Assembly (NCBI GenBank): GCA_050699515.1
Contig: JBOHFF010000071.1
Span: 48,967 to 80,966, forward strand
Source: Pseudonocardiaceae bacterium
Lineage (GTDB): Bacteria; Actinomycetota; Actinomycetes; Mycobacteriales; Pseudonocardiaceae
Length of the DNA stretch: 32,000 nucleotides
Direction of reading: 5' to 3'
Shown here: in pieces, positions 9,205 through 25,603 of the stretch
Layout: each line of letters starts with the position of its first letter
Position numbering within the stretch: position 1 is the first letter of the stretch
Notes under the pieces: generated by a model
Database searches by the model: none
What the model was told of the DNA's origin: nothing
Seen by the model: only the letters and a program-made list of their open reading frames with translations
Translations under genes and position numbers: made by a program

Positions 9205-9276
9205 CTGCGCCACGAGGAGGTCGCCCAGCTCGCCGCGATCAGCACCGACTACTACACCCACCTGGAGCAAGGCGGT
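9205..9276 (+). pseudogene. About 24-codon fragment of an XRE/MmyB-like HTH regulator
   Basis: The frame not reported as an ORF reads LRHEEVAQLAAISTDYYTHLEQGG. This matches the conserved 'GLRREEVAQLAGVSxDYYTRLEQGR' helix of MmyB-type regulators. The similarity stops abruptly on both sides. Confidence 0.4.
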
Positions 9277-9311
9277 GGGACCTCGAGGCCTGGGCATAGG
9301 CTTCGGTGGTG

Positions 9312-9375
9312 TCACAGGCCTAGATAGGATAAGTCCGACTGCCCTTGGGTCTCACAGGCATAGCTTGGGTATGGT
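9312..9375 (+). promoter_or_regulatory. Repeat-rich leader of the BREX operon (candidate operator/promoter)
   Basis: TCACAGGC occurs at 9312-9319 and 9352-9359, 40 bp apart. CTTGGGT occurs at 9344-9350 and 9364-9370, 20 bp apart. A possible TTGGGT, 19 nt, TATGGT arrangement is present. GAGAGGAG precedes the ATG at 9406. The function is inferred only. Confidence 0.3.
9359..9368. repeat. Left copy of the 10-bp direct repeat CATAGCTTGG bracketing the BREX operon
   Basis: An identical 10-mer occurs at 25447-25456. The match is certain. Its significance as an att or target-duplication site is not. Confidence 0.3.
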
Positions 9376-9405
9376 AGAGCGGCGCTGCACGTCAGAGAGG
9401 AGTCG

Positions 9406-9606
9406 ATGATCGTCGAGCCGTGGGTCTCCGTCGAGGGCGTTGCCAGGCATCTCGGGGTGGCTAAGGACTCCGTATACCGGTGGATTGAGACGCGGAGACT
9501 GCCCGCCCACAAGATAGGTCGCTTGTGGAAGTTCAAACTCTCCGAAGTTGACGAGTGGGTTCGAGCTGGTGGTGCCGACGTGCCTGATGACAGCGCGAGT
9601 GGGTGA
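9406..9606 (+). CDS. Excisionase-family (MerR-superfamily) HTH DNA-binding protein, first gene of the BREX array
   Basis: The 66-aa product reads WVSVEGVARHLGVAKDSVYRWIETRRLPAHKIGRLWKFKLSEVDEWV, a typical Xis/AlpA-type HTH. Its stop overlaps the next start (GTGA at 9603-9606). Confidence 0.8.
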   Translation: MIVEPWVSVEGVARHLGVAKDSVYRWIETRRLPAHKIGRLWKFKLSEVDEWVRAGGADVPDDSASG

Positions 9607-10181
9607 CCCACAGGATGACGATATCGAGAGTTGATCTTGAGCGGCTGCTGAAATTGCGGCTCGTCGTGGCACGTTTCGGCGAAATGGATCTTGCCAAGTG
9701 GTGGAACACCAAAGGTCAGCTTGGTCGGCTCGGTGCCAGCGTGCTCCGACGGGGCTTTCCGCGCACGCACCGCTTTGCTCAGGCGCGGTCGGTCTTCGCC
9801 GTAGCGGCCCACCGGTGTGAGGAGATTTTCCACCCTCCAGGGTGTGTCACGCTCTGGCGACTTCCCGAGGAGGTGGAAGAGGAGTTCGACGCCCGATGGG
9901 AGCACTGGCTTGACAACGCCAACGAGTGGAGCTTGTTCTTCGAAGAGTTAGCAGAGCTGAACGGTGGCGATCTTGCTGCCATCCTTCGTGACATGGAGCT
10001 CGTGGCCGAGAGGAACCTGGAGGGGTTCGCCCGGCTGCGGCGTACGGCCGAGGGACGGGCCGTAGCATTGCCTGGAGTATTTTCGAACGGCGAAGAGGAT
10101 GTGAGCCTGTTGGCTCTGGGCTTCGCGCGCGGCGAACCGGGTGCCCTCGCCGTTCCGTACGCCCGGAGGTCGGACCTATGA
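9603..10181 (+). CDS. BrxE-like BREX accessory protein (tentative family assignment)
   Basis: 192 aa (alternative ATG at 9615), coupled on both sides (GTGA at 9603, ATGA at 10178). The sequence (ARFGEMDLAKWWNTKGQLG...FPRTHRFAQARSVFAVA) resembles my recollection of BrxE-family proteins. No enzymatic motif is seen. Confidence 0.55.
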   Translation: MTHRMTISRVDLERLLKLRLVVARFGEMDLAKWWNTKGQLGRLGASVLRRGFPRTHRFAQARSVFAVAAHRCEEIFHPPGCVTLWRLPEEVEEEFDARWEHWLDNANEWSLFFEELAELNGGDLAAILRDMELVAERNLEGFARLRRTAEGRAVALPGVFSNGEEDVSLLALGFARGEPGALAVPYARRSDL

Positions 10182-10960
10182 CGGTTTCGCGCGCTAACGT
10201 GGCGTCGTCCTTCACCGTTATCAAGGGCGCTATGGTCGAGGAAACGTATGCCGTCTTCGCCCACTGGGACTTCACGCGCTCGAAGCGAGAGAATCTGGAC
10301 CGGCTTCGGTCGGACAACACCATCGGCGCTGGCAGCGTGGCGTGGCTCCGTGACGTCGCCAAAGTTCTGAACCGTCGCTTTGACCCCGATGCGCGAGACC
10401 GACCGCTCATTCAGTTGGCCAAGAATGGCTGCGACCTGGACGAGTGGAAACCGCTCCTGCTGTGGCATATGACGCGGGACGAGTTCCTGGTCCGCGATTT
10501 TATCCAGAACTGGCTATTTCCGGCGTACGAGGATGGGCAGTTCCGGATAAGGCCAGAGGATGTTGCGTCGCACCTTTCTTGCATTGATCAGCGTGGTGCT
10601 CTCACCGAACATCCGTGGTCGGCGCCAACGACACATCGAGTAGCAGCTGGCCTGCTCAAGATAGCTGTCGATTTCGGCCTGCTGCGCGGTGGGCCGAAAA
10701 AGGAATTCGCATCATATCACCTGTCCGATCACAGCTTCCTCTACCTCTTGCACGCCATGATGGATGACTTAGGCAGCCCGGGCAAGGTAATTGAATCGCC
10801 GGACTGGCGCCTGTTCTTGATGCGACCGTCTGACATCGAGCACGAGTTGCTGCGTATGCACCAGTTCCGCAAGCTCGACTATCAGGTGGCGGGGAGCATC
10901 GTGCAGCTATCGCTGCCGTGCGCCAACGCTGAAGGTTACGCCGAGAGGATGGTGGCGTGA
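10178..10960 (+). CDS. brxA: BREX protein BrxA (DUF1819 family)
   Basis: 260 aa. The position immediately upstream of brxB/brxC and the DUF1819-like N-terminus (SSFTVIKGAMVEETYAVF...) support the call. ATGA and GTGA coupling to both neighbours. Confidence 0.8.
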   Translation: MTVSRANVASSFTVIKGAMVEETYAVFAHWDFTRSKRENLDRLRSDNTIGAGSVAWLRDVAKVLNRRFDPDARDRPLIQLAKNGCDLDEWKPLLLWHMTRDEFLVRDFIQNWLFPAYEDGQFRIRPEDVASHLSCIDQRGALTEHPWSAPTTHRVAAGLLKIAVDFGLLRGGPKKEFASYHLSDHSFLYLLHAMMDDLGSPGKVIESPDWRLFLMRPSDIEHELLRMHQFRKLDYQVAGSIVQLSLPCANAEGYAERMVA

Positions 10961-11532
10961 GCGACTTCGAGGAGCGACTGCGACAAGTGCTCGAGCCGAT
11001 ACTCGCGATGTCGGATCCGCGGCCACGCATCAGCGCCTATCATGATATGCCGTACGCGCTTTTTGTCTATGACCCGGCCGATGAGTTTCCGCTGCGAAAG
11101 CAGGTGAGGCTACTCGAGACCCGCCTGATGCAGAAGGGCAAGCGGGTTCACAGGATCTCGCTGGTCGAGTGCCTGGACGAGTCCATGCGCTCACAACGGC
11201 CGCTGCCTGATTGGTACGCCGCAGAGCGCGAGCAGGGTCCGGACACGACCGTGGAAACGGTACATGCCGTACTCTCCGACTATTCACCGTTGGTCGAGCA
11301 TGTTACGCGGCGGATGCCGGCAGAGCCGGATCCGCTGCGTGACGTCGTGCTCATTCTCCGTGCCGGGGCACTTTTCCCGGTGTACCGGGCGCACTCGCTA
11401 CTCGAACAGCTGATGGGCCGGGTCCAGGTACCAACCATGTTATTCTATCCCGGCTCCCGAGACGGTGCGGCCGGGCTACGGTTCATGGGCATTCTCGCCG
11501 CCGAGCACAACTACCGCGTGAAGATCTTCTGA
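10957..11532 (+). CDS. brxB: BREX protein BrxB (DUF1788 family)
   Basis: 191 aa with the DUF1788-like motif MPYALFVYDPADEFPLRKQV. It sits in the canonical position between brxA and brxC. Confidence 0.85.
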   Translation: MSDFEERLRQVLEPILAMSDPRPRISAYHDMPYALFVYDPADEFPLRKQVRLLETRLMQKGKRVHRISLVECLDESMRSQRPLPDWYAAEREQGPDTTVETVHAVLSDYSPLVEHVTRRMPAEPDPLRDVVLILRAGALFPVYRAHSLLEQLMGRVQVPTMLFYPGSRDGAAGLRFMGILAAEHNYRVKIF

Positions 11533-11545
11533 CGGGATCATCTCG

Positions 11546-14500
11546 ATGACGACAGGCCAGCCCATTAGCGCCCTCTTCGCCAGCGACATACACCGCCGCA
11601 TCGAAGAGGTCATCAAGGTCGACAAGACCGACGATATGGCAATCTGCGACGAGATCGACGAGTATGTCGTCACCGGCGCTATTCGCGGCCACTATGCGAA
11701 TATCTTCGAGGCGTACCGGCAGACGCCGAACAAGCCGCACGAGGGTATCGCGATCTGGGTGTCCGGTTTTTTCGGCTCCGGGAAATCAAGCTTTGCGAAG
11801 ATGCTCGGCGTGTCCATCGAGAACCGGATCATCGCGGGGGAGCCGGCCGGGCAGCGATTCGCTCGCCGAGCCAATGACAACCAGCTTCAGGTCCTCCTCG
11901 CGGCGATTAACGAACAGATTCCCACCCACGCGGTGATCTTTGATGTATCGACGGACCGGGGAATCCGAAGTGGCAACCAGACGCTGACCGAGATTATGTA
12001 CGGGCTGTTCCTGCATAGTCTGGGCTACGCCAAGGATCTCGATCTGTCCGAGCTGGAGATCTCTCTCGAGGAGAAGGGTGAGCTCGCCCAATTCAAGGGG
12101 GAGTACGAGCGACTCTTCCAGAAGCAATGGGATCAGGAGAAAGGCAAAGTTGCGTTCGCTCTGAGTGAGGCGAGCCGGGTGCTGCACAGCCTGGACACTG
12201 ATACCTACCCGATGGCGGACTCGTGGGTCAAGGCGGTCAAGAACAAGGCGGATATCACGCCGGGAAAGCTCGCCCAGCGAGCGACCGAGTTGATGAACCG
12301 CCGCAGGCCCGGGTACGCCCTCATATTCGTCGTTGACGAGGTCGGCCAGTTTGTGGCACGTGATGTGCAGAAGATGCTTGACCTGCAAGCCATCGTTCAG
12401 AATCTCGGTGTATGGGGGCGCGGCAGGCACTGGCTCGTGGTGACCTCCCAGGAGAAGCTGGGCGAGCTGGTCAGCGGGCTGGACGACAAGAAGATCGAGC
12501 TGGCCCGGCTGATGGATCGGTTCCCGCTCCAGGTCCACCTCGAGCCCTCCGACATCTCCGAGGTGACCAGCCGCCGCGTCTTACGTAAGAATGCCGAAGC
12601 TGAGCGGGTGCTCGGGCAGCTCTTCGATGAGCATCGCGGTCGTCTGCTCGATCACACACGACTCACCGCTGACATCAGGCTGCCGGAACTGAACCGGCAC
12701 AGCTTCATGGATTTGTATCCGCTGCTGCCCTATCAGGTCGACCTCATCATTCAAGTCGTTTCCGGGCTCCGCACGCAGGCCGGCGGGAGCAGGCACGTCG
12801 GCGGCGCGAACCGGACCATCATCAAGCTCGCCCAGCAGCTATTGATCAATCCTGCGGTCAACCTCGCCGATCAGCCGATCGGCATGCTGGTCCGGCTGGA
12901 CCAGGTCTACGACCTGGTTGAGGGAAACATCGGTTCCGAGGTGCGAGCGAAGATCGCCGCGATTCCCCGAGAACTGGACCACCCGCTTGCTCAGCCGGTC
13001 GCGAAGGCAATCTGCCTGCTGCAGTACGTGCGGAGCGTCCATCGCAGTGCCGAGAACATCGCCGCCACGTTGCTTCCGTCCGTCTCCAGCGACTCCCAGC
13101 TGGCGTCGGTGCGGGAGGCGCTCGCGGAACTGGAGGCGGCCCACAAGATTCGCCGCGGAGAAGACGGCTTCCGCATCCCGACCCCGGCGGAGGACGACTG
13201 GGAACGGGTACGCAACGGGATCAGTCCGAAGCCGGGGGATGCGCACCACTTGTACTCGGAGGTCCTGTCGGGTTTCTGGCAGCCACAGCCTTCGCACACC
13301 CTCTTCGACACCAAGACGTTCAAGGCTGGCCTCGCCATTCACGGGCGGGAGGTCACGGCTGGTGATCTGGTCTTCCAGTTCCATCTGGCAGATGAAGGAC
13401 CCGAGTTCGACGCGCTCGCGGTGGAGCTTCGGGTTCGCAGCCAACAGGAACGCAAGCACGTGTTCTGGGCGGTACCACTCACCAATGCCATCGACCACGA
13501 GATCGTCGAGCTGTTCCGCTCCAGGCAGATGCTCGCGCAGAAGGAGCGTGAGGCGCGTGGCGAGGATACGCCAGCGCTCATGGCCGAGGAGCGGCTGCGG
13601 CAACGGCACCACCACGAGGAGCTGCGCCGCCTGCTCCGCGCGGCCTGCCTGACCGGTCGGGTGTATTTCCGCGGCAACGACCGGAGCCCGGGTGACAACG
13701 CGGTCGACGTCGGCAAGACGGCATCGCAGATCCTCGGTCACGTCCTCCCCGATGTTTTCGACCGTTTTCAGGAGGCCGCCGCCAAGGTCAATGATGTGCG
13801 GAAGGCGACCGAGACAATCTTCACCGCGCAGAACCTGCAAGGGCTGCCGCCCGTCTTCAGCAGCCTTGGGTTGCTCCGGGACGAACACGGCAAGATTGTG
13901 TTCCGTGTGGACGGTGGTCCGCTTAAAGAGGTGTTGGACCGTATCGAGGAACGAGCGAACTACGGCGACACCGCTAGCGGGCGCTACCTGGCCGACGAGT
14001 TCGCCAACGAGCCGTTCGGATGGGACTTCGACGTGGTACGCCTGCTCGTCCTGTCGCTGATGCGGGCCGAGAAGATCGAGGCGACCAGTAAGGGCCAGAC
14101 CCTCGACTCGGTGACGACCGTGCAGGCGCGCGACACCTTCTCGAACAACAACCTGTTCCGCCAGGCGGCGTTCCGCCCTCGGAAAGGCATCGAGTTCGAG
14201 GAGCTGGTGAAGGCCAACGAGGCGTTCCGCGATACCTTCGGCGACGACATCGGTGAACTCACCGCCACCACGGTGGCGAGGGAGTTGCGCGAGAAGGTTG
14301 CGAGCACTGAAGAAATCGTGCAGTCCGCGCTCTCGATGCTGACAAGATACCGGCTTCCCGGCGAGTACATGCTGGACACCGCGCTTGGCCAGATGAAGGC
14401 GGTGTTCCGTGGCTCGGTGAACAACGCCATCGCCACATTCAATGCCAGCCATCGGGCCATCAAGGATGCCATCAAGCGCGGTACCGAGCTGTGCGAGGCG

Positions 14501-15091
14501 CTCACCGAACCAAGGCTGTACGACCTGCAACGGGCGCGCCAGGCGGTGGAAATCGCGTGGCCCGCGCTGCGGGACGAGTCTGGGATCGGTCCCGAGCTGG
14601 AGTCGCGGGCCGCTCAACTGGAAGACCTGCTGGCACGCGAGACGTTTTACCGCGACCTGCCGGCGATCGAACAGCACGCCCGCGCGATCGAGCTGGAGTA
14701 CGCCCGCCGCTTCGATGACGCGCAGCAGGCGCGCATCGACGCCTACACCGCGGCCTTGAAGGAACTCACCAGCGAGCCGGGCTGGTACGACCTGCCGGAG
14801 GAGACCCAACAGGAAATCTCTGCCCCGCTGGTGGCTGGCCAACGCCCGTCGCCACGCACCGCGCCGATCTCGCTGCTGCGCTCCGAGCGGGACGCATGCG
14901 AGGGTCGACTTCGCGCGGCGATACGCCGGATGCAGGAGATCATCGAGGGCGACCGGCTGGAGTCGGTCCAGGTCCACTCCTACTTCGCGGGTGGCATCGA
15001 GACCGTGGAGCAGCTGGACGCTGCGCTTTCTGGCCTGCGTGAAGAGTGTGCCAGGCTGATCGGGGCGGGGAAGAAGGTTGTGCTCTCGTGA
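11546..15091 (+). CDS. brxC: BREX P-loop ATPase BrxC/PglY
   Basis: 1181 aa. Walker A GFFGSGKSSFAKML (about 11764-11790). Walker B ALIFVVDEVGQF. Size and position are canonical. Confidence 0.95.
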   Translation: MTTGQPISALFASDIHRRIEEVIKVDKTDDMAICDEIDEYVVTGAIRGHYANIFEAYRQTPNKPHEGIAIWVSGFFGSGKSSFAKMLGVSIENRIIAGEPAGQRFARRANDNQLQVLLAAINEQIPTHAVIFDVSTDRGIRSGNQTLTEIMYGLFLHSLGYAKDLDLSELEISLEEKGELAQFKGEYERLFQKQWDQEKGKVAFALSEASRVLHSLDTDTYPMADSWVKAVKNKADITPGKLAQRATELMNRRRPGYALIFVVDEVGQFVARDVQKMLDLQAIVQNLGVWGRGRHWLVVTSQEKLGELVSGLDDKKIELARLMDRFPLQVHLEPSDISEVTSRRVLRKNAEAERVLGQLFDEHRGRLLDHTRLTADIRLPELNRHSFMDLYPLLPYQVDLIIQVVSGLRTQAGGSRHVGGANRTIIKLAQQLLINPAVNLADQPIGMLVRLDQVYDLVEGNIGSEVRAKIAAIPRELDHPLAQPVAKAICLLQYVRSVHRSAENIAATLLPSVSSDSQLASVREALAELEAAHKIRRGEDGFRIPTPAEDDWERVRNGISPKPGDAHHLYSEVLSGFWQPQPSHTLFDTKTFKAGLAIHGREVTAGDLVFQFHLADEGPEFDALAVELRVRSQQERKHVFWAVPLTNAIDHEIVELFRSRQMLAQKEREARGEDTPALMAEERLRQRHHHEELRRLLRAACLTGRVYFRGNDRSPGDNAVDVGKTASQILGHVLPDVFDRFQEAAAKVNDVRKATETIFTAQNLQGLPPVFSSLGLLRDEHGKIVFRVDGGPLKEVLDRIEERANYGDTASGRYLADEFANEPFGWDFDVVRLLVLSLMRAEKIEATSKGQTLDSVTTVQARDTFSNNNLFRQAAFRPRKGIEFEELVKANEAFRDTFGDDIGELTATTVARELREKVASTEEIVQSALSMLTRYRLPGEYMLDTALGQMKAVFRGSVNNAIATFNASHRAIKDAIKRGTELCEALTEPRLYDLQRARQAVEIAWPALRDESGIGPELESRAAQLEDLLARETFYRDLPAIEQHARAIELEYARRFDDAQQARIDAYTAALKELTSEPGWYDLPEETQQEISAPLVAGQRPSPRTAPISLLRSERDACEGRLRAAIRRMQEIIEGDRLESVQVHSYFAGGIETVEQLDAALSGLREECARLIGAGKKVVLS

Positions 15092-17064
15092 GTGCCCGCA
15101 TCGACTTGACCGAGCTGGCTCGCCGGGAGAACGAGCAGACGGAGTGGAAGGAGAACGTCGCCGAAACCGACGATGTGGTGGCGGCCCTCAGCGCCTTTGC
15201 CAACGACCTGCAGAACCTCGGCGGCGGGTACGTGGTGTGTGGCGTACGGGAGGACAAGGACGAGCACGGTTTCCCGCAGCTGGTGCGCGTCGGCCTGACG
15301 GCCAGCCGCTTCAAGGAGGTCGAAGGGACCGTGCTTGCCGGTTGTCGGGATCGCGTGTCCCCGCCGATCACACCGCTGGTGGAGGAGCTCACGACCGACG
15401 ACCAGCAGCGCCGCATCCTGGTCTTCATTCAGCCGGCGACTGGTACTGCGCACACATTCCGCCGGCGCAACGACGGAGCAAAACACTATGTGCGGGTCAG
15501 CCGCTCAACCATCGAAGCGAGAAACGGGACTCTGAAAGACCTTCTCGTCCGCAAGAGCGCGCTCGAACCATGGGATCGCAGACCGTGCAACGGGGCCACC
15601 GAAGCGGATCTCGATCTACTGGCGTTGCGTGATGCATTGCAACGAATGGGTGTATTCTCCTCTGAGTACGGCGTCGAGCCGTATCTCTCACCGGACGTTT
15701 CGTTGAGCGCATTCGTCCCGCCGCTGCTGGCGGCCGAGCCGCTCACCGGGGTACTCAGGCCGCGCAACTTCGCGATCCTGCTGTTTGGCCGGGAGACCCA
15801 GCGGTTCATCCCGGGTGCCGTCGCGTTCTTCTCCATCTATCCGGGTGTTGATAGGTCCGATGTGCACGCCGAGCGCCACGAGCTGGCTGGCAACGTACTG
15901 GAGCAGGCCCGCCGGCTGCAGGAGCTGCTCGACATCCAGTCGTACACCGCGTTTGACAAGGCCGATCCGACCTCGCCGAACGTCATCAAGTATCCAAAGC
16001 GTGCCCTGTACGAGGCGATGGGGAATGCGCTGGCGCACCGAGACTACGAGCTGCCGGATTCTACACGGCTGACGGTCTTCTCCGACCGGATCGAGGTCGC
16101 CTCACCCGGTCCGCTCCCGTCCGGCGTAGACATCGAATACCTGCGCCAGGGCACTGCGCCGCCACGGTGGCGCAACCAGGCGCTCGCCTGGTTCTTCTCC
16201 CGGCTACAGCTCGCGCAGGCGAAGGGGCAAGGCATCCCCACGATCCTCCGTTCCATGCGGGAAGGGGGCTGTCCCCCGCCGATCTTCATAGCCGACCCCG
16301 TTCGGGTCGCCTGCACGCTGCCGGCGCATCCGCGGCATGCCGCGCTTCGCGCTCTCCGCTCCGCCGAGCAGGCACTCGCTCTAGGCGAGTTGGCGGAAGC
16401 GAAGACCCAAGTTGAGCGGGTCCTGGGCCGGGACCCGCTCAACTTCCGCGCCATCAACCTGTTTGCCGAGGTGCATCACGCTCGGCGGGATGCCGCGGCG
16501 GTGTCGGCCTGGGTGCGGGAGCACCTCCGTCACCTTGACGGGCTGCCACCGCAAGTCCTGGTCCAGCTCGCCGAGGCGTTGGAGAACGACCGGGCGAGCA
16601 CCGAACATAAGGCTCTCGCGCGGACGCTCCTCGCATCCGCTGCGCGAGGACGGTTGGAGGAGCGCGAGCTCCGGCGTATCGCCGTGGCGATGAGCCGCGC
16701 GAACGACTACCAGGGCGCACTGTCCTTGATCGAACGGCACCTTCAGGAGCACCCGGAGTGGCAGGGCAATCCCTCGCTGCGGCAACTGCGCGGGGACTCG
16801 CTCATCGGCCTGGCGAAGCGGTGCAGGGCAACCGCGACGAAGGCGGGCATCGCGCGCGCCACGCGAGAGCGGGCCTGGCGAGAGTTCCACTCGTACCTCA
16901 ACCAAGCAGAGCACGAGCTTCGTGAGGGCCTCGCCCTCAGCCTGGATGAGAACCTGAGCGACCAGATCCGGCGGAACCTAGACTACCTCGAACGACTGAG
17001 GGGCGAGAACCAGCCTCCACAGATCCGGCCAGCGCGCAGCCGACGGAGGGGGTCCCGTGGATAA
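15088..17064 (+). CDS. AlbA_2 (Schlafen-core-like) + HATPase_c_4 + C-terminal TPR-like helical-repeat protein, non-canonical BREX-embedded gene
   Basis: GTG at 15088 overlaps the brxC stop (GTGA). The N-terminus RENEQTEWKENV...GGGYVVCGV is AlbA_2-like. The centre is HATPase_c_4-like: YEAMGNALAHRDYE..RIEVASPGPLPSGV..RWRNQALAWFFSRLQLAQAKGQGIPTILRSMREGGCPPPIF. The last ~260 aa are helical repeats (ALALGELAEAKTQVERVLGRDPLNFRAINLFAEVHH...). The pglX GTG lies 8 nt inside its 3' end. Confidence 0.85.
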   Translation: MSARIDLTELARRENEQTEWKENVAETDDVVAALSAFANDLQNLGGGYVVCGVREDKDEHGFPQLVRVGLTASRFKEVEGTVLAGCRDRVSPPITPLVEELTTDDQQRRILVFIQPATGTAHTFRRRNDGAKHYVRVSRSTIEARNGTLKDLLVRKSALEPWDRRPCNGATEADLDLLALRDALQRMGVFSSEYGVEPYLSPDVSLSAFVPPLLAAEPLTGVLRPRNFAILLFGRETQRFIPGAVAFFSIYPGVDRSDVHAERHELAGNVLEQARRLQELLDIQSYTAFDKADPTSPNVIKYPKRALYEAMGNALAHRDYELPDSTRLTVFSDRIEVASPGPLPSGVDIEYLRQGTAPPRWRNQALAWFFSRLQLAQAKGQGIPTILRSMREGGCPPPIFIADPVRVACTLPAHPRHAALRALRSAEQALALGELAEAKTQVERVLGRDPLNFRAINLFAEVHHARRDAAAVSAWVREHLRHLDGLPPQVLVQLAEALENDRASTEHKALARTLLASAARGRLEERELRRIAVAMSRANDYQGALSLIERHLQEHPEWQGNPSLRQLRGDSLIGLAKRCRATATKAGIARATRERAWREFHSYLNQAEHELREGLALSLDENLSDQIRRNLDYLERLRGENQPPQIRPARSRRRGSRG

Positions 17065-20000
17065 GCAGACGCGCAATGCCATCGATAACGCCACCCAAAG
17101 GGCCCGGAGGCTGCTGGAAGAAGACTTCGCGGCGCAACTCGAGGGTGACTTCGACGTGCTGCGCAGCGGTGCGGTGGCCGACGTCGCCGGAGGACATCTC
17201 ACACCGCGACAGGTCTTCCACCGAGAGAAGATCGTCGCCACGCTGAACCATAAGTGCGCTGCGGGGATGACTGTGGCCGAGGCGGTCGCGGACTACATCC
17301 GCGACGCCGCGTTCACCACGCTGAACCGCTTCGCTGCATTGAAGATGCTCGAGGCTCGCGGCCTGGTGCTGCAATGCGTGAGCAAAGGCGAGGCCTCCGC
17401 TGGCTACAGCGAATTCTGCGGGCTCGCGCCGAGCCTGCCGCTGCTGCCCCACAGCGCCGGCTACCGCCTGTACATCGAGTCGCTGTTCGACGAGCTGTCC
17501 ACCGAGGTGAAGGTGCTGTTCGACCGGCGCGACCCGGCGTCGGTGCTGTGGCCCAGACGCGCCGCGTTCGACGAGCTGCTCGACATTCTCAACGCACCCG
17601 GCCTAGCCGGCATCTGGGGCGAGGACGAAACGATCGGCTGGTTCTACCAGTACTTCAACAGCGGTGACGAACGCCGGAAGATGCGCGAAAGCCAGGTGCC
17701 ACGCAACAGCCGCGAACTGGCCATCCGCAACCAGTTCTTCACTCCCCGGTACGTCGTGGAGTTCCTCACCGACAACACGCTGGGGCGCATCTGGTATGAG
17801 ATGCGCGAAACCAAGACGGCGCTGGCGGACCAGTGCGAGTACATAGTGCGCAGGCCCGATGAGGAGTTCGCCCCTCGGCCGAAGAAAGATCCGCGGGACA
17901 TCCGGGTGCTGGATCCGGCGTGCGGCAGTGGACACTTCCTGCTGTACGCGTTCGACCTGCTCATCACGATGTACGAGGAGGCGCACGCCGACCCGGAGAG
18001 CCCGGCAAGCGAAGCGACCGGTCGGACCCTCGCAGAGGATTACCCGAGCCTGGACGAACTGCGGCGAGCGATTCCTGGTCTTGTGCTCGCGCACAACCTC
18101 TACGGCGTCGACATCGATCCGAGATGCGCACAGATCGCCCAACTGGCACTGTGGATTCGGACCCAGCGAGCGTACCGGGACTTCGGCATCCGCCGTGACC
18201 AGCGTCCACAAATCCGGCGCTCGAACATCGTCATTGCGGAGCCGCTAGTCGCTGATGGCCGGGTCGCGGCTGACTTCCTGGCACGTCTAGATGATGACGA
18301 GCTCAAGCAGGTCTTCAAGGATCTGGTTGATGTGCTAGCCCTAGCAGGCGACCTGGGGCTGCTGCTTCGGCTGGAGTCGCGCGGGACACGGCCGTTGGCG
18401 CGTGGATATGAATGGGACCTCTTCACACCGACGGACGACCGCCTGCGCGGGGCGCTGGTCCGGTTTGCTGCGGACGAGAGTGGCGCGGCAAATATGCGGC
18501 GACGTCTCTTTGTGAATGACGCCATGCATGGCATGGGGCTTATCGCCCTGGCAAGCCGGAAGTATGATGCTGTGCTGATGAACCCTCCGTTTGGTGACTT
18601 TGCGTCTGATGTTCAACAGTTTGCCAAGGAGCAATACTCACATGGGCGAAATGACATTTATACCGCCATGGTGCTGCGGGGGCGCGAACTCCTACTTGAC
18701 AGTGGTCGAATTGGCGTAATTACATCGAGTTCATTTATGCTCGGGCGGGACCACCGTCGTTTTCGGCAGGCCATTTTGAACCTGTCAGGACCACGAGTTT
18801 CACTTCTTCTCAATCTTGGTTGCGGTGTCCTCGATCAAGCGATGGTAGAGACGACTGCGTACGTTTTGATGTCTAATGTCGAGAATATTGCTATTACGTC
18901 TGTTGCCAGTGTCAAGGAAATTGAAGCCGCGACCAAGGATGCTTGTCGACGTTGGAGTACATGGCGAATTTTCGCACATTCATACTTTGCAGCAATGCCA
19001 ATGATGCAGTTTATCTATGGTATCGATGTGGAGGTTGGTAGTCAGCTTGATGATAGAACAATCTCACTTGACCCAAGCTTTGGTCGGGTAACTAAAGGGC
19101 TTTCTACGCCTGACAATTTTAGGTACATCCGCCTCCGCTGGGAGCTCGCACCAGATGCGCTTGAGCTGGGCTGGCAGCTGTGCGCGAAGGGGGGTGAGTA
19201 CGCGTGGTTCTCGGGGGACCTGCATCTGTTAGTTAACCGGGTTGCGTCGGGAAAGGAAATGGCAGCCTCGTCTGAGCCTGCAGGCGGGAATGTTGCGCGA
19301 ACGAGGCAGTCGTCGACATATTATGGCCGTGCGGCTGTAACCTGGTCACGTCGAAGCCAAAAGGGGTTCAGTGTCCGAAGGCTCCGCAAGGGAGCATGTT
19401 TCCTAGACAAGAGCGGCGTCATTGTGCCTAAGGAGGAGGGTGAAGAAGATTTGCTACCCGCGATCATGGCGGCGCTCGCAACAAATAAATACCAGTCTCT
19501 GATCCGCGTCCAGTCGCGATTTGGGGCATATGAAACGGGGATGGTTGGCCTTCTGCCAGCGCCCGCGGCACTTCTCCAGGCGTCGTGCGACTGGGGGATG
19601 ATTGCCGAGGTTGTCGATGAATTCGAGAGTCATTTCGAAACCAATCAGATATTTTCATCACCCCCACCCCCGAATTGGAATCCCGTAGTCTCGTTGGATT
19701 CTGCATTCAATACACTTGCCGACAATCTTCAAAGCTGCGGATATGAGCTCGACGAGACGGTTAGACGCAACGAGGTCTCCCGCCTTGAGGCATTGCGCGA
19801 GCAATACGGCTACCAAAACGCTTGGCTATCGTTCCTCTTTGGAGTGGCGATTGGGCGGTGGGACAAGAGATTACTGTCTGGCGATCGGACTCTTCGGAGG
19901 CGCCCCGGATTGTTTGACGATCTTGGCATTTGCGCACCTGCTGAGAACGTCCATGACGCAGCTGGGCCACCTGTGTCGAACACTGGTGTGGTAACGGATG

Positions 20001-20857
20001 ATGACGGCACGCCTGATAATGTTCTCGCTTCGGTTGTTAGAGCAGCAGAAACTGTGCTTGAGGCCGGGTTGGCCGGGCCGTTGTTCCTAGACGTTCCTCA
20101 GCTCCGACGATGGTTTGCAACGGAGTTCTTTGACTACCATCTTCGGCGCTATTCACGTAGCCGACGTTCCGCGCCTGTGTACTGGCAGCTGGCAACATCA
20201 TCGGCTAGCTACTCGGTGTGGCTGTACATCCAGGCGTTCACCAGGGACACCTTGTTTCGCGTACAGAATGACTATGTTGTGCCGAAGCTCGAGCACGAGC
20301 AGCGCCGCCTGGAGACGATGCTCCGCGAGTTCGGCGAACGGACGACCGCTGCGGAGCGTCGCGGGCTCGCGGACCAGGAAGCATTCGTCGGCGAGCTGCG
20401 GGATTTCCTGGACGAAGTGAAGCGGGTAGCGCCGTTGTGGAACCCGAACCTCGACGACGGAGTGATTGTCAATTTCGCGCCGTTGTGGCGCCTGGTTCCG
20501 CAGCACAAGCCATGGCAGCGGGAGCTGAAGGCGACATGGGACGCGCTGTGCGAGGGCACATACGACTGGGCCCACCTCGCGATGCACCTGTGGCCGGAGC
20601 GGGTCGTCCCGGAGTGCGTGGTGGACCGGAGTCTCGCCATCGCGCACGATCTGGAGGAGGTGTTCTGGGTGCAGGGCGACGACGGCAAGTGGTCAGCGCG
20701 ACTGGCCCCTACCGTCCCGGTTGAGCAGCTGGTCCGGGAGCGGACATCCACCGCGGTCAAGTCCGCGCTGCGGAGCGTGCTCACTGCCCCGATCACGAAT
20801 GGGCGTGGGCGGCGTCGGCGTGGTGCGCCCGGTACCGGCAACGGCGGAGGTCGCTGA
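17057..20857 (+). CDS. pglX: BREX type-1 N6-adenine DNA methyltransferase PglX
   Basis: 1266 aa. SAM motif I VLDPACGSGHFLLYAFD (about 17905-17937). Catalytic motif IV NPPF (18581-18592). The N- and C-termini are typical of PglX. Confidence 0.95.
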   Translation: MDKQTRNAIDNATQRARRLLEEDFAAQLEGDFDVLRSGAVADVAGGHLTPRQVFHREKIVATLNHKCAAGMTVAEAVADYIRDAAFTTLNRFAALKMLEARGLVLQCVSKGEASAGYSEFCGLAPSLPLLPHSAGYRLYIESLFDELSTEVKVLFDRRDPASVLWPRRAAFDELLDILNAPGLAGIWGEDETIGWFYQYFNSGDERRKMRESQVPRNSRELAIRNQFFTPRYVVEFLTDNTLGRIWYEMRETKTALADQCEYIVRRPDEEFAPRPKKDPRDIRVLDPACGSGHFLLYAFDLLITMYEEAHADPESPASEATGRTLAEDYPSLDELRRAIPGLVLAHNLYGVDIDPRCAQIAQLALWIRTQRAYRDFGIRRDQRPQIRRSNIVIAEPLVADGRVAADFLARLDDDELKQVFKDLVDVLALAGDLGLLLRLESRGTRPLARGYEWDLFTPTDDRLRGALVRFAADESGAANMRRRLFVNDAMHGMGLIALASRKYDAVLMNPPFGDFASDVQQFAKEQYSHGRNDIYTAMVLRGRELLLDSGRIGVITSSSFMLGRDHRRFRQAILNLSGPRVSLLLNLGCGVLDQAMVETTAYVLMSNVENIAITSVASVKEIEAATKDACRRWSTWRIFAHSYFAAMPMMQFIYGIDVEVGSQLDDRTISLDPSFGRVTKGLSTPDNFRYIRLRWELAPDALELGWQLCAKGGEYAWFSGDLHLLVNRVASGKEMAASSEPAGGNVARTRQSSTYYGRAAVTWSRRSQKGFSVRRLRKGACFLDKSGVIVPKEEGEEDLLPAIMAALATNKYQSLIRVQSRFGAYETGMVGLLPAPAALLQASCDWGMIAEVVDEFESHFETNQIFSSPPPPNWNPVVSLDSAFNTLADNLQSCGYELDETVRRNEVSRLEALREQYGYQNAWLSFLFGVAIGRWDKRLLSGDRTLRRRPGLFDDLGICAPAENVHDAAGPPVSNTGVVTDDDGTPDNVLASVVRAAETVLEAGLAGPLFLDVPQLRRWFATEFFDYHLRRYSRSRRSAPVYWQLATSSASYSVWLYIQAFTRDTLFRVQNDYVVPKLEHEQRRLETMLREFGERTTAAERRGLADQEAFVGELRDFLDEVKRVAPLWNPNLDDGVIVNFAPLWRLVPQHKPWQRELKATWDALCEGTYDWAHLAMHLWPERVVPECVVDRSLAIAHDLEEVFWVQGDDGKWSARLAPTVPVEQLVRERTSTAVKSALRSVLTAPITNGRGRRRRGAPGTGNGGGR

Positions 20858-23415
20858 TGCACCCACTGCACGACTATGTGGCGAAGTGGCTCGCTGATGA
20901 GATCCGACGTCATTCGGTTGTCGTCTGGTACGACGAGCGGGCGGAGTTCGCACCGTTCATCGATGAGATCCGCGGCGGGCCGCGCACCGGCGACGAGGCG
21001 GTGCGGGTGACGGTGAACGACACGAGCGTCTGGCTCGCCGAGTACGCCGGCTCGATGTTCGAACTACGCGCGGCGGCCGAGCCGTACATCGGCGGCGACT
21101 CACCGGACCCCGTCGTCGTTTACCTCCCCGGCCGCGCGCGCGACCTGGACAGTTCAGTCCTGGCGGAGCTGGAGCAGGCGGGAACGGTCTTGACCCAGCG
21201 GCTTGTTGACGATACCGCTAGGCATCTCCTGCTGCGGAAGTACACCCTCGGCGTGGTCGATGCGATGCTCTCGCCCGGCCGAAGGCTCGCCTACGAGGAC
21301 ATCGCGCGGCTGGCGCGCAGTGACGGGCCGGAGCCACCGTCGGTCCTCAGGAGCGTCTTCCATGACGTCAAAGGAGCGGAAGCGGTGCTGGCCGCCTGGT
21401 TGGCGGACGACTCGCGCGACGCCGACATCAGCAGTAAGGCCGCCACCCCCGAATTGGTCGCCCTCATCCACAAGGCGCTCGGGCTTCAACCGCCCCGAGA
21501 AGCGTCGCTGTCGAAGCTGAGGGCGATAACTATCCGGTACGTGCTGGCGAACGAGTTCCGCATGGATCTGTCCTGCGACCCGCCAGCCGCGCTCGATGGC
21601 GTGCCGACGCCATCCGCGCCGGATGCCGAATCGGCGGTGCGGGAACTGGCGAAGGTTCTGCGGGCGGATCATCCGAAGGTGTATCCGACGCTGGCGGATC
21701 AGGTCGAGGCTGAGCTCGGTCTGCGTGATGTGACTTTGCCCGCAGGTTTCTTGGGGTCGATTGACACATTCCGTTTCGAGGAGCGGGAGCTCCTGCGTCA
21801 CTGCGGCGAGCTCATCGCTGAGGGCCGGTACGACGAAGCGCTCAGCGTGGTCACCCAACGCCAGCGCAGCTTCTGGCTCGACCTCGACGTTGGACGCAGG
21901 ACCCAATGGGAGGTGGTCCGCCGGATGGCCGAACTCGGCGGCCTGGCCGTCCGGGTGCGCGCCGAGGTGGCCAAGGCCAACGGTGACGCGCAGACCTGGC
22001 TCAGCAGATATACCTCCGCTCCTTACGAGTGGTACCGGATGGACCAGGCACAGCGGCGCCTCGAAGCGTTGGTAGCCACTCTCCACGACGACCCCGACGA
22101 GCGGCCGCTTGGTCTGGTGCGGCGAGTGTACGAGGACACCTGCCATCAGATGGCCGCCGGTTTCACCAGGGCGCTGGTCTCATCCGGCTGGACGGTTCCG
22201 GGGGCCCTGCACCAAACGCAGATCTACCGGGACGTCGTATCCGCGCAACCGAAGCCGGTCGCCTACTTCTTCGTCGACGCCATGCGGTACGAGATGGGTA
22301 TCGGATTGATGCAACTGCTGCCGGCGAGCTCCGAGGTGTCTGTCCGCCCCGCGATCGCCGCGTTGCCCAGCATCACGCCCATCGGCATGGCCGCGCTGCA
22401 ACCGGGCGCATCATCCAGCTTCTCCGTGCGCGAACAGGGCGGCAAGCTTGGCGCCCAGATCGAAGACGCGTTCCTCCCCGATCTCGCTGCGCGCAAGAAG
22501 TTCGCCGAGGCACGGATACCGAAGCTGGCCGACCTGGAACTTATCGAGCTGCTGAGCCTACAACCAGCCAGGCTGGCGAAGCGGATCAACGGTGCGCAGG
22601 TGGTTGTGGTCCGCTCACAGGAGATCGACCAGGTCGGTGAGGCCGGGTTCACCTACCATGCCAGGCAGGTTATGGACACCGTTATCGAGAATCTCGCTCG
22701 GGCAGTCCGCAAGCTCGCCGCGGCCGGTGTAGCGCACGCGGTGGTGACTGCCGACCACGGTCACCTGTTCTTCGCCGCCGACCGCGACGAGTCGATGCGA
22801 ACGGACTCGCCCGGAGGCAATACAGTCGACCTGCACCGGCGCTGCTGGATCGGTCGAGGCGGTGCGACCCCGCCGGGATGCGTGCGGGTCGCGGCATCCG
22901 CCCTCGGCTATGCGTCTGACCTGGAACTCGTGTTCCCCACCGGTACTGGCGTATTCCGGGCGGGGGGTGACCTCGCCTACCACCACGGCGGGCCATCGCT
23001 GCAAGAGCTCGTCGTGCCGGTCGTCACGATCCGCACCTCGGCGCACCAGGCCAAGCCGGTCACGGCTCCGGTCATATCCGTCAGTGACGTGCCGCAGACC
23101 ATCACGGTTCGGATCGTGCCGGCCACCGTGACCCTTGGCGACGACCAGCTGGTGCTCGGTGCGACCGGCATGGCTGTCCGGGCCGTGCTCGTCTCGAACG
23201 GCAGGCAGGTCGGGGCCGTTGGCATGGTACGCGACGCCGAGTTCGACGCTGAGACCGAGCAAATACGGTTGGAACCGGGCCAGCCAGCCGCGGTCGCGTT
23301 CGTGCTCAACGACGACACCATTGCGTCCCTGCGGATCGTGATACTCGACCCGGCCACCGACGCGGAGCTGTACCGGTCGCCAAAGGAAATCCCCATTCGG
23401 CTCGGTGTGCAATGA
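20857..23415 (+). CDS. pglZ: BREX alkaline-phosphatase-superfamily protein PglZ
   Basis: 852 aa. PglZ core motif AYFFVDAMRYEMG and TADHGHLF. The ATG shares one nt with the pglX stop (TGATG) and is preceded by GGCGGAGG. Confidence 0.95.
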   Translation: MHPLHDYVAKWLADEIRRHSVVVWYDERAEFAPFIDEIRGGPRTGDEAVRVTVNDTSVWLAEYAGSMFELRAAAEPYIGGDSPDPVVVYLPGRARDLDSSVLAELEQAGTVLTQRLVDDTARHLLLRKYTLGVVDAMLSPGRRLAYEDIARLARSDGPEPPSVLRSVFHDVKGAEAVLAAWLADDSRDADISSKAATPELVALIHKALGLQPPREASLSKLRAITIRYVLANEFRMDLSCDPPAALDGVPTPSAPDAESAVRELAKVLRADHPKVYPTLADQVEAELGLRDVTLPAGFLGSIDTFRFEERELLRHCGELIAEGRYDEALSVVTQRQRSFWLDLDVGRRTQWEVVRRMAELGGLAVRVRAEVAKANGDAQTWLSRYTSAPYEWYRMDQAQRRLEALVATLHDDPDERPLGLVRRVYEDTCHQMAAGFTRALVSSGWTVPGALHQTQIYRDVVSAQPKPVAYFFVDAMRYEMGIGLMQLLPASSEVSVRPAIAALPSITPIGMAALQPGASSSFSVREQGGKLGAQIEDAFLPDLAARKKFAEARIPKLADLELIELLSLQPARLAKRINGAQVVVVRSQEIDQVGEAGFTYHARQVMDTVIENLARAVRKLAAAGVAHAVVTADHGHLFFAADRDESMRTDSPGGNTVDLHRRCWIGRGGATPPGCVRVAASALGYASDLELVFPTGTGVFRAGGDLAYHHGGPSLQELVVPVVTIRTSAHQAKPVTAPVISVSDVPQTITVRIVPATVTLGDDQLVLGATGMAVRAVLVSNGRQVGAVGMVRDAEFDAETEQIRLEPGQPAAVAFVLNDDTIASLRIVILDPATDAELYRSPKEIPIRLGVQ

Positions 23416-25451
23416 GCGAGACTCCCGTACTCCGCGATCCCTTGGACGACAAGGTCAATCGGTTGTTCGCCGGGAAGGTCGTCCGCAAGGACCTGGTCCG
23501 TAAGGTGAAGGTCGGCGCGAACGTGCCGGTCTTCGTCCTTGAGTTCCTGCTCGGCAAGTACTGCGCCTCGTCCGACGAGCTCACCATCCAGATGGGGCTG
23601 CAGGTCGTCAACGACACCCTCGCGAACAACTACATCCGGGCCGACGAATCGACCAGGGCTCAGGCGATCGTCAAGGACTGCGGTCGCCACACATTCATCG
23701 ACAAGGTGAAGGTCCGCCTGGTCGACTCCGACTACTGGGCGGACGTGACAAACTTCGGGCACAAGCACGTACACATCCCAGAGCACTACATCCGCGACTA
23801 CGAGCGACTGGTCATGGGTGGTATCTGGGCTCAGGTTGACATGCGGTTCGCCTACGACGAGGAATCGCGTGGGAAGAACCCGTTCTGGATCGACCGGCTC
23901 ACCCCGATCCAGATCGCCACGTTCGACCTCGACGAGTACCGGAAGGTTCGCTGTGAGTTCACCACCGACGAGTGGCTCGACCTCATCGTGCGCAGCACCG
24001 GGTATGAGCCCAGCGAGATGTCACGCCGACTCAAGCTGCTGTTCCTGGTGCGGCTGATCCCGTTCGCCGAGCGGAACTACAACCTGGTGGAGCTTGGGCC
24101 CCGAGGAACCGGCAAGAGCTACGTCGTGCAAGAGGTTTCGCCGTACTCCGCGCTGCTGACCGGCGGCACGACGGTGGCGAACCTCTTCGGCCATCTGTCC
24201 GGACGCCAGAAGGGCATGGTGCAGATCTGGGACGTCGTCGGGTTCGACGAGGTGGCCGACTTGCAGAAGATGCCCAAAGAGGTCGTCACCACCATGAAGA
24301 CCTACTGCGAATCCGGTACCTTCCAACGCGGGCAGGAGGCGATGTCCGGCGACGCCAGTATCGCTATGTTCGGCAACACCAACCAGCCCATTGACGTGAT
24401 GGTCCAGACCGGTCACCTGTTCGCGCCGATGCCCGCCATCATCCGGGACGATATGGCCTTCATTGACCGCATCCACTTCTATCTCCCCGGCTGGGAAATC
24501 CCGAAGATGCGGAACGAGCTGTTCACCGATCATTACGGCTTCGTCGTCGACTACCTCGCCGAAGCGCTCCGCGAGATGCGTAAGCACAACTTCACCGAGC
24601 TCATCGATCGACACTTCTCGCTCGGCTCGCATCTCAACGCGCGTGACCGAAAAGCGGTGCGCAAGACAGTGTCCGGGCTGACGAAGATCCTGTACCCGCA
24701 TGGCGAGGTGACCGAGGAGGAGCTCGCCGAAATTCTTGAAATCGCGCTCGAAGGACGGCGTCGGGTGAAGGAGCAGCTCAAGAAGATGGGTTCCTTCGAG
24801 TACTACCACACATCGTTCAGCTACACATCGCAGGAGACGGGCGACGAGCAGTTCGTCGGGGTGCCGGAGCAGGGCGGACGTGATCTCATCTCGACGGATC
24901 CTTTGCCGCCGGGCACGGTCTACAGCGCCGGTGTGAACCACGACGGAACGGTTGGGCTTTACCGCATCGAAATTTCGCTCTCCGGTGGCACCGGAAAGCT
25001 GAAGCTGGCTGGTGGCGTGGTTGGTGCCACCAAAGAGTCGGTCCAGCGAGCGTTTAGCTACTTGCAGTCGACGAAGAACGAGCTTGCGGTAGCACAGGAG
25101 TTGAATTTCTCGGATCTCCACGTCGAGATCATCGACCTCCTAGGGAACCGGGTGGAGGCGGAGCTCGGTGTGGCGTTCTTCGTCGCCTGCTACTCGGCCC
25201 TCCGCAAGGTGCCGGCCAGCCCGGCGCTACTGGTCCTAGGAGACATGAGCGTGCAGGGGAACATCAAAGCGATGCGTTCACTGGTCGAGCCGCTACAAGT
25301 GGCCAAGGATAACGGCGCGAAGCGGGCACTGATTCCGATCGAGAACAAGCGAACTTTTCTTGAAGTTAGCGCAGAGATTGTGGAACACGTCGATCCAATC
25401 TTTTATGGAGATCCAAGAATGGCGGTTGCCAAAGTCCTTGGAGGATCATAG
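23412..25451 (+). CDS. brxL: BREX Lon-like protein BrxL
   Basis: 679 aa. The BrxL-type N-terminus is LFAGKVVRKDLVRKVKVGANVPVFVLEFLLGKYC. AAA+ Walker A GPRGTGKSY. C-terminal Lon-like domain LLVLGDMSVQGNIKAM. ATGA overlap with pglZ. Confidence 0.95.
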   Translation: MSETPVLRDPLDDKVNRLFAGKVVRKDLVRKVKVGANVPVFVLEFLLGKYCASSDELTIQMGLQVVNDTLANNYIRADESTRAQAIVKDCGRHTFIDKVKVRLVDSDYWADVTNFGHKHVHIPEHYIRDYERLVMGGIWAQVDMRFAYDEESRGKNPFWIDRLTPIQIATFDLDEYRKVRCEFTTDEWLDLIVRSTGYEPSEMSRRLKLLFLVRLIPFAERNYNLVELGPRGTGKSYVVQEVSPYSALLTGGTTVANLFGHLSGRQKGMVQIWDVVGFDEVADLQKMPKEVVTTMKTYCESGTFQRGQEAMSGDASIAMFGNTNQPIDVMVQTGHLFAPMPAIIRDDMAFIDRIHFYLPGWEIPKMRNELFTDHYGFVVDYLAEALREMRKHNFTELIDRHFSLGSHLNARDRKAVRKTVSGLTKILYPHGEVTEEELAEILEIALEGRRRVKEQLKKMGSFEYYHTSFSYTSQETGDEQFVGVPEQGGRDLISTDPLPPGTVYSAGVNHDGTVGLYRIEISLSGGTGKLKLAGGVVGATKESVQRAFSYLQSTKNELAVAQELNFSDLHVEIIDLLGNRVEAELGVAFFVACYSALRKVPASPALLVLGDMSVQGNIKAMRSLVEPLQVAKDNGAKRALIPIENKRTFLEVSAEIVEHVDPIFYGDPRMAVAKVLGGS

Positions 25452-25456
25452 CTTGG
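25447..25456. repeat. Right copy of the 10-bp direct repeat CATAGCTTGG (spans the brxL stop codon)
   Basis: Identical to 9359-9368. It sits at the start of an AT-rich stretch; 25441-25500 has 23/60 G+C by my count. Confidence 0.3.
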
Positions 25457-25603
25457 AATAATTCCGCTTCTCGACTAAAAATGGCAACCAAGACAATATT
25501 GGTCGCCCCGGCGAGCTTCCAAACGGTGCGCGCTCAGCTGTGACGGGTTCGGTCCCGAAAACCGCCGCCACACCGTGGGCCGAGCATGTCGGCATCCGCG
25601 CCG

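Follow-up and report, generated by a model that had tools for sequence, protein, structure and literature searches.

The stretch of DNA analysed here, called the window below, is a 32,000-nucleotide segment of a Pseudonocardiaceae contig (GenBank JBOHFF010000071.1, positions 48,967 to 80,966), and between its positions 9406 and 25451 the plus strand carries a set of bacteriophage exclusion (BREX) genes. Very probably these genes form a compact nine-gene operon for a BREX type 1 system of a BrxE-carrying lineage, in which a helix-turn-helix (HTH) regulator gene and a Schlafen-type cargo gene, here named X, are optional members. Judged by gene content across relatives, the core of this lineage is BrxE-BrxA-BrxB-BrxC ... 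PglX-PglZ-BrxL. For the comparison we used 164 related loci, 80 of them from species-representative genomes and anchored on X, and 84 anchored on BrxE, the latter taken from three contig look-ups and one metagenome scan. The nine genes and the profile matches of their products are as follows.

9406-9606, plus strand: excisionase-family HTH protein, 66 aa (Pfam HTH_17 PF12728, 55.8 bits, cut-off 27)
9615-10181, plus strand: BrxE-family protein, 188 aa (NF033447 BrxE_fam, E 3.8e-47, 160.8 bits, cut-off 40)
10178-10960, plus strand: BrxA, 260 aa (PADLOC PDLC02454, E 1e-113, full length; Pfam BrxA, 58 bits)
10957-11532, plus strand: BrxB, 191 aa (PADLOC BrxB, E 2e-58; Pfam BrxB, 66 bits)
11546-15091, plus strand: BrxC P-loop ATPase, 1181 aa (PADLOC BrxC, 2049 bits; NF033441, 843 bits, cut-off 400)
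15088-17064, plus strand: gene X, 658 aa, Schlafen (AlbA_2) and HATPase_c_4 domains (Pfam) with a TPR-like tail (structure model)
17057-20857, plus strand: PglX (BrxX) N6-adenine DNA methyltransferase/specificity factor, 1266 aa (NF033452, 541 bits; PADLOC, 1104 bits)
20857-23415, plus strand: PglZ, 852 aa (PADLOC PDLC02559, 1183 bits, full length; Pfam PglZ, 52.7 bits)
23412-25451, plus strand: BrxL, Lon-like, 679 aa (TIGR02653, 970 bits, cut-off 628; Pfam BrxL_N, BrxL_ATPase and Lon_C)

A Complete BREX Type 1 Core

Searches with PADLOC, Pfam and NCBIfam profiles found the six-gene type 1 core complete, on one strand and in the canonical order brxA-brxB-brxC-pglX-pglZ-brxL, as in the type 1 systems (Goldfarb et al. 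2015) of E. coli HS, Acinetobacter and Salmonella D23580. An earlier note on this DNA, made from the letters alone, had described an apparently intact BREX-1 system and named several catalytic and nucleotide-binding motifs. The profiles agree with that description and every motif was found: the BrxC Walker A (GFFGSGKS at residue 74) and Walker B (IFVVDE at about residue 260), PglX motif I (DPACGSG at 286) and motif IV (NPPF at 509), the BrxL Walker A (GPRGTGKS at 229) and the PglZ core motifs DAMR, PSIT and TADHGH.

PglX passes the BREX-1 methyltransferase model NF033452, for which the cut-off is 500 bits. PglZ is under the cut-offs of the BREX-1 type A and B models (TIGR02687, 110.8 bits against 270; NF033450, 90.9 bits against 400), and its best NCBIfam match, the BREX-6 PglZ model, is below cut-off as well (275 bits against 400). 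Because the PADLOC model matches end to end where the NCBIfam type cut-offs fail, this protein is a true PglZ, of a clade outside the coverage of the NCBIfam type-specific models.

The locus thus differs from the type 1 systems named above in having a BrxE-family gene before brxA, an HTH_17 leader gene instead of a WYL-type BrxR, a PglZ nearer to the NCBIfam BREX-6 model than to types A and B (below every cut-off) and cargo between brxC and pglX. With BREX type 6 (brxE-brxA-brxB-brxC-brxD-pglX-brxHI-pglZ) it shares the beginning brxE-brxA-brxB-brxC, and PglZ and part of PglX resemble type 6 models. However, the PADLOC search matched no BrxD or BrxHI model among the nine products, BrxL is present, and BrxE passes the broader family model but not the BREX-6 BrxE equivalog of NCBIfam (39.9 bits against a cut-off of 80). 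With BrxL but neither BrxD nor BrxHI, the locus has the gene content that defines type 1 and not that of type 6. A 2026 survey (Rakesh and Krishnan, PMC12839542) folds types 5 and 6 into type 1.

In published work on other systems, BrxB, BrxC, PglX and PglZ are required for methylation and defence alike (PMC11341690), and PglZ, a metal-dependent nuclease, associates with BrxB in a sub-complex (PMC12205998). By analogy with other BREX-1 systems, PglX together with BrxB, BrxC and PglZ would methylate a short non-palindromic motif in the host, and unmethylated incoming phage DNA would be blocked. Site-specific N6-adenine methylation and phage exclusion by the present locus are predictions from its sequence.

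Two features of pglX were seen alongside. The GC content is 0.47-0.57 at 18450-20250 of the window (PglX residues about 465-1065) and about 0.65 elsewhere in the operon, while relatives are 61-71% identical to PglX over residues 1-604 and 39-45% identical beyond about residue 640. This pattern suggests that the target-recognition and C-terminal half of PglX was swapped by recombination with a lower-GC donor. In addition, pglX is split in many relatives into two frames, one of about 607 aa with the methyltransferase motifs and one of about 670-690 aa (L001, L002, L005, L016, L039, L045, L060, L068, L083, L084, L085 and L151); it is a single reading frame in the window and in L036, L081, L100 and L164. 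The PglX of the window is matched at its two ends by separate PADLOC PglX models, of 640 and 682 positions. The split genes may encode either a true two-subunit PglX or a product of programmed frameshifting.

Compact Junctions Are Inherited in the Lineage

Nine open reading frames (ORFs) occupy the plus strand from 9406 to 25451, and their eight junctions consist of seven stop/start overlaps and one spacer. The deposited annotation of the contig (CDBNYC010000029.1, a Pseudonocardiaceae metagenome-assembled genome, MAG) likewise has exactly nine genes and agrees in gene set and starts. The count of ten genes and nine overlaps in the earlier note was therefore not confirmed, but every overlap that it listed was found: GTGA at 9603, ATGA at 10178, GTGA at 10957, GTGA at 15088, the 8-nt GTGGATAA at 17057-17064, TGATG at 20855 and ATGA at 23412. 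The exception that it had made for brxC also stands, with a 13-nt spacer between the brxB stop at 11532 and the brxC ATG at 11546. At 9603 the GTGA tetranucleotide is present, but its role as a junction is doubtful. The GTG there would be an alternative BrxE start giving 192 aa. Since 11 BrxE homologues, by their N-termini, and likewise the deposited annotation put the start at ATG 9615, and since the HTH stop in relatives overlaps the ATG equivalent to it, the HTH-BrxE junction in the window is probably an 8-nt spacer rather than a GTGA overlap.

An ORF at 8780-9409 was considered as a tenth gene and rejected as non-coding. It overlaps the HTH start through ATGA and lies opposite a coding-like fragment on the other strand, it matches no family and is missing from the deposited annotation, and its codon-position GC is flat (0.67/0.60/0.62, against about 0.68/0.45/0.78 in real genes). 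All nine accepted ORFs are full length, are free of internal stops and show coding-type GC at third codon positions (GC3) throughout.

The same spacings recur in related loci from several phyla. The brxE-brxA junction is -4 in 81 of 93 cases, brxA-brxB is -4 in all 67, brxB-brxC is +10 to +14 in 47 of 57, brxC-X is -4 in 19 of 25 and pglX-pglZ is -1 in 13 of 17; a 4-nt overlap joins HTH and brxE in 17 of the 24 relatives in which it could be measured. The lineage pattern of -4, -4, +12 to +14, -4, -8, -1, -4 is kept whatever the cargo. Because this pattern recurs across related loci of several phyla, the compact junctions are a real, non-random and inherited trait of the operon lineage and not a peculiarity of this locus. 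Being inherited and independent of the cargo, they cannot alone show that X or the HTH protein is a stoichiometric subunit.

BrxE Is a Constant Partner of BrxA

The original classification assigned BrxE only to type 6, as quoted from Goldfarb 2015 in PMC12839542, and the earlier note had rightly linked it with another BREX subtype. In the window, the family model NF033447 covers BrxE residues 12-188 over its whole length (model positions 1-169 of 169), and homologues carry the precomputed annotation PF26412. In the 14 X-anchored BREX loci where the sequence reached far enough upstream, the order was always brxE-brxA-brxB-brxC. As a standalone protein, BrxE measures about 185 aa and is about 75% identical across phyla, and its family comprises 555 clusters at 50% identity without informative fusions. 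Representatives of 264-284 aa that looked like HTH-BrxE fusions were rejected, their N-terminal extensions being low-complexity, mis-called starts and not HTH domains. A tblastn search of PLSDB gave no match to BrxE on plasmids. These comparisons show BrxE to be constantly present and closely coupled to BrxA in a large BREX-1 lineage with BrxL.

An Exchangeable Slot between brxC and pglX

Gene X lies between brxC and pglX. The contents of this slot were counted over the BrxE-anchored loci that span both genes, with the following result.

Empty slot of 11-18 nt: 12 loci
ORF of 353-378 aa: 8 loci (L083, L084, L100, L126, L138, L140, L145 and L164)
DuOB and DUF488 genes, L093:6285-7607: 1 locus (PADLOC candidate system PDC-M45, E 6e-89 and 2e-89)
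Protein of 198 aa, L081:10103-10699 and L082:6270-6866: 2 loci (no Pfam or PADLOC match)
Schlafen-type genes: 3-4 loci

A RelA_SpoT nucleotidyltransferase domain was found in the ORF of L083 by Pfam scan and in those of L083 and L084 by precomputed annotation. The gene of the 198-aa protein, whose last residues are ...SRG, shares 8 nt with pglX, like X in the window. The slot of L124 holds a second, distantly related Schlafen-HisKinase-winged HTH (wHTH) protein, with clear wHTH matches. The flanks of the slot, the 3' end of brxC and the 5' end of pglX, are highly conserved, and the X-carrying operons form a sub-lineage with its own brxC 3' end and a pglX GTG start.

Outside the slot, X is found away from BREX in 59 of the 80 X-anchored loci, where there are no BREX genes and no conserved neighbours. 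Because the slot is empty or otherwise filled in relatives, and because X occurs mostly outside BREX, the comparison identifies X as optional cargo in an exchangeable slot and not as a fixed BREX subunit. The brxC-pglX junction thus recurs as a site of cargo, in at least five states.

Self-contained defence modules nested in a BREX core are known from PARIS (ariAB) in Salmonella D23580 and BrxU (GmrSD) in E. fergusonii pEFER, both embedded in BREX islands (PMC11341690). The present case differs in that the insert is a single gene whose codons overlap both neighbours, and in that the slot hosts at least four other gene sets in relatives. One might go further and propose that the brxC-pglX gap is a dedicated cassette-exchange site, at which conserved flanks let effectors of one or two genes swap and yet stay translationally coupled, and that the resident would fire as a guard when phage proteins disable BREX, much as PARIS fires for Ocr. 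We regard this proposal, analogy included, as rather unlikely.

One relative, L151, has an empty slot (L151:15436-15458), yet its brxC 3' end (…VVLS, tcgtga) and its pglX start GTG GAT AAG are of the X type, which otherwise occurs only in X-carrying operons. X may have been cleanly lost there, or the locus may preserve the ancestral condition of the X sub-lineage.

Gene X Encodes a Schlafen-HisKinase Protein with a TPR-Like Tail

The X product matches SLFN_AlbA_2 (PF04326) with 40.7 bits (cut-off 25.3) and HATPase_c_4 with 67.3 bits. Prokaryotic Schlafen (pSlfn) proteins have the catalytic motif Ex4(E/D)xK, and those with the motif cleave RNA and defend against phage (PMC13056530). In X the motif is Ex4ExK (E14, E19 and K21) and is invariant in 17 homologues of 57-82% identity. 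An AlphaFold2 model of X has a mean predicted local distance difference test score (pLDDT) of 70, and its N-terminal domain resembles the AlbA_2 domain of 2kyy. In the model, paired helices spanning residues about 430-645 form a helical repeat, with pLDDT 85-94. The top Foldseek matches for this tail are the TPR proteins IFIT1, IFIT5, TTC0263, PilF and PEX5, at modest E values of 3e-4 to 4e-3, and at the sequence level the TPR models stay under their cut-offs of about 25 bits (Fis1_TPR_C, 17.9 bits; TPR_19, 16.8 bits).

X shares with the published pSlfn-HisKinase and pSlfn-HisKinase-HTH proteins (PMC13056530) an N-terminal Schlafen/AlbA_2 domain with Ex4(E/D)xK followed by a minimal HisKinase-like domain. 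It differs from them by the TPR-like tail of about 230 residues, in place of which relatives in the same slot have a short Lys/Ala/Pro-rich tail. The long form with the TPR-like tail occurs in Actinobacteria and some Myxococcota; the short form ends in the basic Lys/Ala/Pro-rich tail. In lying inside a BREX locus X resembles the BREX-embedded Schlafen genes of PMC12839542, which describes Schlafen-HisKinase-wHTH genes tightly linked to BREX or BREX-related loci in at least 1017 taxa.

Pfam searches on the upstream neighbours of X at 10 sampled non-BREX loci assigned 8 to ordinary non-defence families and 2 to no family; among them were glycosyl hydrolase, PmbA/TldD, GGDEF, glycogen phosphorylase, RNase HII, RseP and TonB-dependent receptor genes. 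The idea that X is an accessory of type I restriction-modification, prompted by large upstream ORFs at non-BREX loci, was rejected on these neighbours. In L004, L040, L049 and L052, X stands beside short BREX fragments (brxC, and also brxE, HTH or pglX), the remainder of BREX being gone. These loci look like decayed BREX operons, deletion derivatives that kept the Schlafen gene after BREX was lost. In one of them, Sorangium cellulosum So ce26, the order is HTH, 30 residues of BrxC, and then X.

X most likely acts as a second-line effector complete in itself: its HisKinase-like and TPR-like parts would sense a phage cue, and its Schlafen domain would cut tRNA or other RNA and so stop translation.

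The HTH Gene and Its Upstream Element

Besides HTH_17, the product of the first gene passes TIGR01764 (54.5 bits against a cut-off of 28.8). Its closest specific profile is MAD1 (NF047737) of the methylation-associated defence system, at 65.9 bits and below the cut-off of 80. A related HTH gene lies directly 5' of brxE in 33 of the 84 BrxE-anchored loci and is absent from the other 51; the 33 are a lower bound, as other HTH types also occupy that position. Upstream of the gene is one further feature:

9305-9405, plus strand: promoter/operator-like region, 5' of the HTH gene, aligning with an element conserved in relatives

The region, a predicted promoter, contains a CGACT half-site, a GGTCT...GGCATAGCT core, a -10-like TATGGT at 9370-9375 and the Shine-Dalgarno sequence GAGAGGAG. 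Loci with the HTH gene share an upstream element of about 55 nt, ttCGACTnTAGTCGGGTCTTGTnGGCAGAGCTnGGCCCGGGTACCCTGC (consensus CGACTnTAGTCG), in which a palindrome stands beside -35/-10-like hexamers. The palindrome pattern was found in 8 of the 33 HTH loci and none of the 51 loci without the gene, and the core pattern in 16 of 33 versus 1 of 51. A 24-nt direct repeat is also present at 9308-9331 and 9348-9371 (GGTGTCACAGGCCTAGATAGGATA / GGTCTCACAGGCATAGCTTGGGTA), with its copies 40 nt apart and 79% identical. Since the second copy overlaps the conserved element of the relatives, part of the HTH promoter region may have been duplicated.

By these distributions the HTH gene is an optional module that travels with its own conserved promoter/operator-like element. 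Its product most likely autoregulates the operon from 9305-9405, by analogy with the control of other defence operons by BrxR and C proteins. It shares with these the position of a small DNA-binding protein gene at the 5' end of the operon and, in relatives, a promoter-adjacent palindrome. It differs from them in belonging to the excisionase/MerR-type HTH_17 fold family and in having no WYL ligand domain, and its regulatory function is predicted.

Flanking Sequences

The upstream flank (1-8810) consists of ordinary actinobacterial housekeeping genes: solute-binding protein, ABC ATPase with TOBE, alpha/beta hydrolase, acyl-CoA/AMP-binding ligase, cold-shock protein and EF-hand calcium-binding protein. 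Between it and the promoter region, at 8969-9300, are two apparent gene remnants. One, a coding-like 73-aa ORF on the minus strand (8969-9190), has the look of a hydrolase C-terminus; on the plus strand there is also a fragment with the reading ...EEVAQLAAISTDYYTHLEQG... and a likeness to the N-terminus of XRE/HTH_31 regulators. Together with a drop in GC at about 9000, these remnants suggest the left border of an inserted island near that position. The window has no Rfam match and no tRNA gene, and therefore no tRNA-linked integration site; no integrase was seen either.

25483-25512, strand unassigned: inverted repeat, possible terminator, 32 nt past the brxL stop (consensus scan)

This repeat scored on the minus strand, with a T-run, and forms a plus-strand hairpin without one. 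It is a possible terminator on weak evidence, terminator-like sites in the region totalling no more than chance. Further downstream (25540-31731), the ORFs 25741-26262 (plus), 26304-26720 (minus), 26720-26977 (minus), 27109-27588 (minus) and a 518-aa ORF at 30175-31731 (minus) have no family match. The same region holds a 489-aa HTH_31-domain protein (28044-29513) and a TrmO-like gene (29641-30132, minus).

In a Burkholderiales MAG (L081:1-4176) the BREX genes of this lineage lie directly 3' of TraG/VirD4-like and TrwC relaxase genes and of HigB, HTH_3 and Phd-like toxin-antitoxin genes. Because of these upstream genes that BREX locus is probably on a conjugative element, a context that fits the cross-phylum spread of the lineage at 60-89% identity.

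Discussion

The three genes added to the core can be read in other ways. The earlier note placed them with the core in one stoichiometric unit of hybrid gene content, and in full form this would make all nine proteins, HTH, BrxE and X included, a single coupled BREX machine of a distinct hybrid subtype. Seven of the eight junctions do overlap, the -4 overlap of brxC with X and the 8-nt overlap of X with pglX recur in relatives, the X-carrying operons have a brxC 3' end and a pglX GTG start of their own, and BrxE is constant in the lineage. We nevertheless consider such a machine distinctly unlikely. Most BrxE-anchored relatives have nothing or unrelated genes in the slot, X occurs mainly outside BREX and persists beside BREX remnants in four loci, the HTH gene is absent from 51 of 84 relatives, and overlapping codons are the general spacing of the lineage whatever its cargo. 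With an optional Schlafen gene and an often absent HTH gene, the proposed unit is thus not supported, and the hybrid content is not new either, as NCBIfam has a BrxE family model apart from BREX-6 BrxE and Schlafen genes in BREX were catalogued in 2026. What the note had right about the extra ORFs is that they are associated with defence and are not housekeeping genes, being an excisionase-family HTH, a BrxE-family protein and an AlbA_2/HATPase_c_4 protein (profile searches) with a TPR-like tail (model). For X itself, a role as a DNA-binding regulator instead of a nuclease effector, tuning expression of pglX-pglZ-brxL or aiding DNA recognition, would accord with its place directly 5' of pglX, with homologues annotated as "predicted HTH transcriptional regulator" or "RecG-like", and with the wHTH both in the architecture given in PMC12839542 and in the L124 occupant. 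We think this unlikely, because Ex4ExK and the residues surrounding it are invariant in the 17 homologues, the family persists as a lone gene among housekeeping genes, and prokaryotic Schlafens with the motif cleave RNA and act against phage (PMC13056530).

That the operon is a recently transferred, non-functional or silenced island, its compactness merely inherited, seems to us very unlikely. The GC content of the operon (0.60-0.65, against 0.66-0.73 in the flanks), the remnants at its left border, the degenerate upstream element and the decayed BREX copies in relatives are in keeping with such a history. However, the nine ORFs are uninterrupted with coding-type GC3, the motifs checked are intact, and identity to relatives is 53-89% over full lengths. 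Several observations do weigh against our preferred reading, a BrxE-carrying type 1 operon with an optional regulator and optional cargo. A single, tightly coupled transcript of the nine genes is predicted only from their spacing and overlaps, and a consensus scan for promoters and terminators over 8700-26300, uninformative for Actinobacteria, gave counts not above the shuffled expectation. The copy of the conserved element in the window (9335-9375) is recognisable but degenerate, having lost the right half of the palindrome, and its spacer is about 5 nt shorter than in relatives. A PDB profile search found no BrxE relative of solved structure, and an AlphaFold2 model of BrxE built with 12 close homologues was unusable (mean pLDDT 40). 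Residues 242-326 of X have low confidence in its model, and in one published screen HisKinase-fused Schlafens gave no defence in E. coli (PMC13056530).

On our preferred reading the locus is an ordinary, well-preserved example of a known arrangement, with components that PADLOC and NCBIfam already recognise, BrxE at family level, and with PADLOC core models that fit this lineage from end to end. Term searches of PMC12839542 returned no mention of BrxE in type 1 loci or of an HTH_17 leader gene, nor of RelA/SpoT or DuOB-DUF488 as slot occupants. These features, namely BrxE in type 1, the HTH_17 leader and these slot occupants, are small additions and not a new kind of system. Because BrxE is constant in a BREX-1 lineage that has BrxL, it is no marker of type 6, which supports placing type 6 within type 1. 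As a candidate BREX regulator with a conserved promoter/operator-like element of its own, the HTH_17 gene offers an alternative to BrxR, and the differing states of the brxC-pglX slot amount to a natural experiment that can show if effectors embedded there need BREX.

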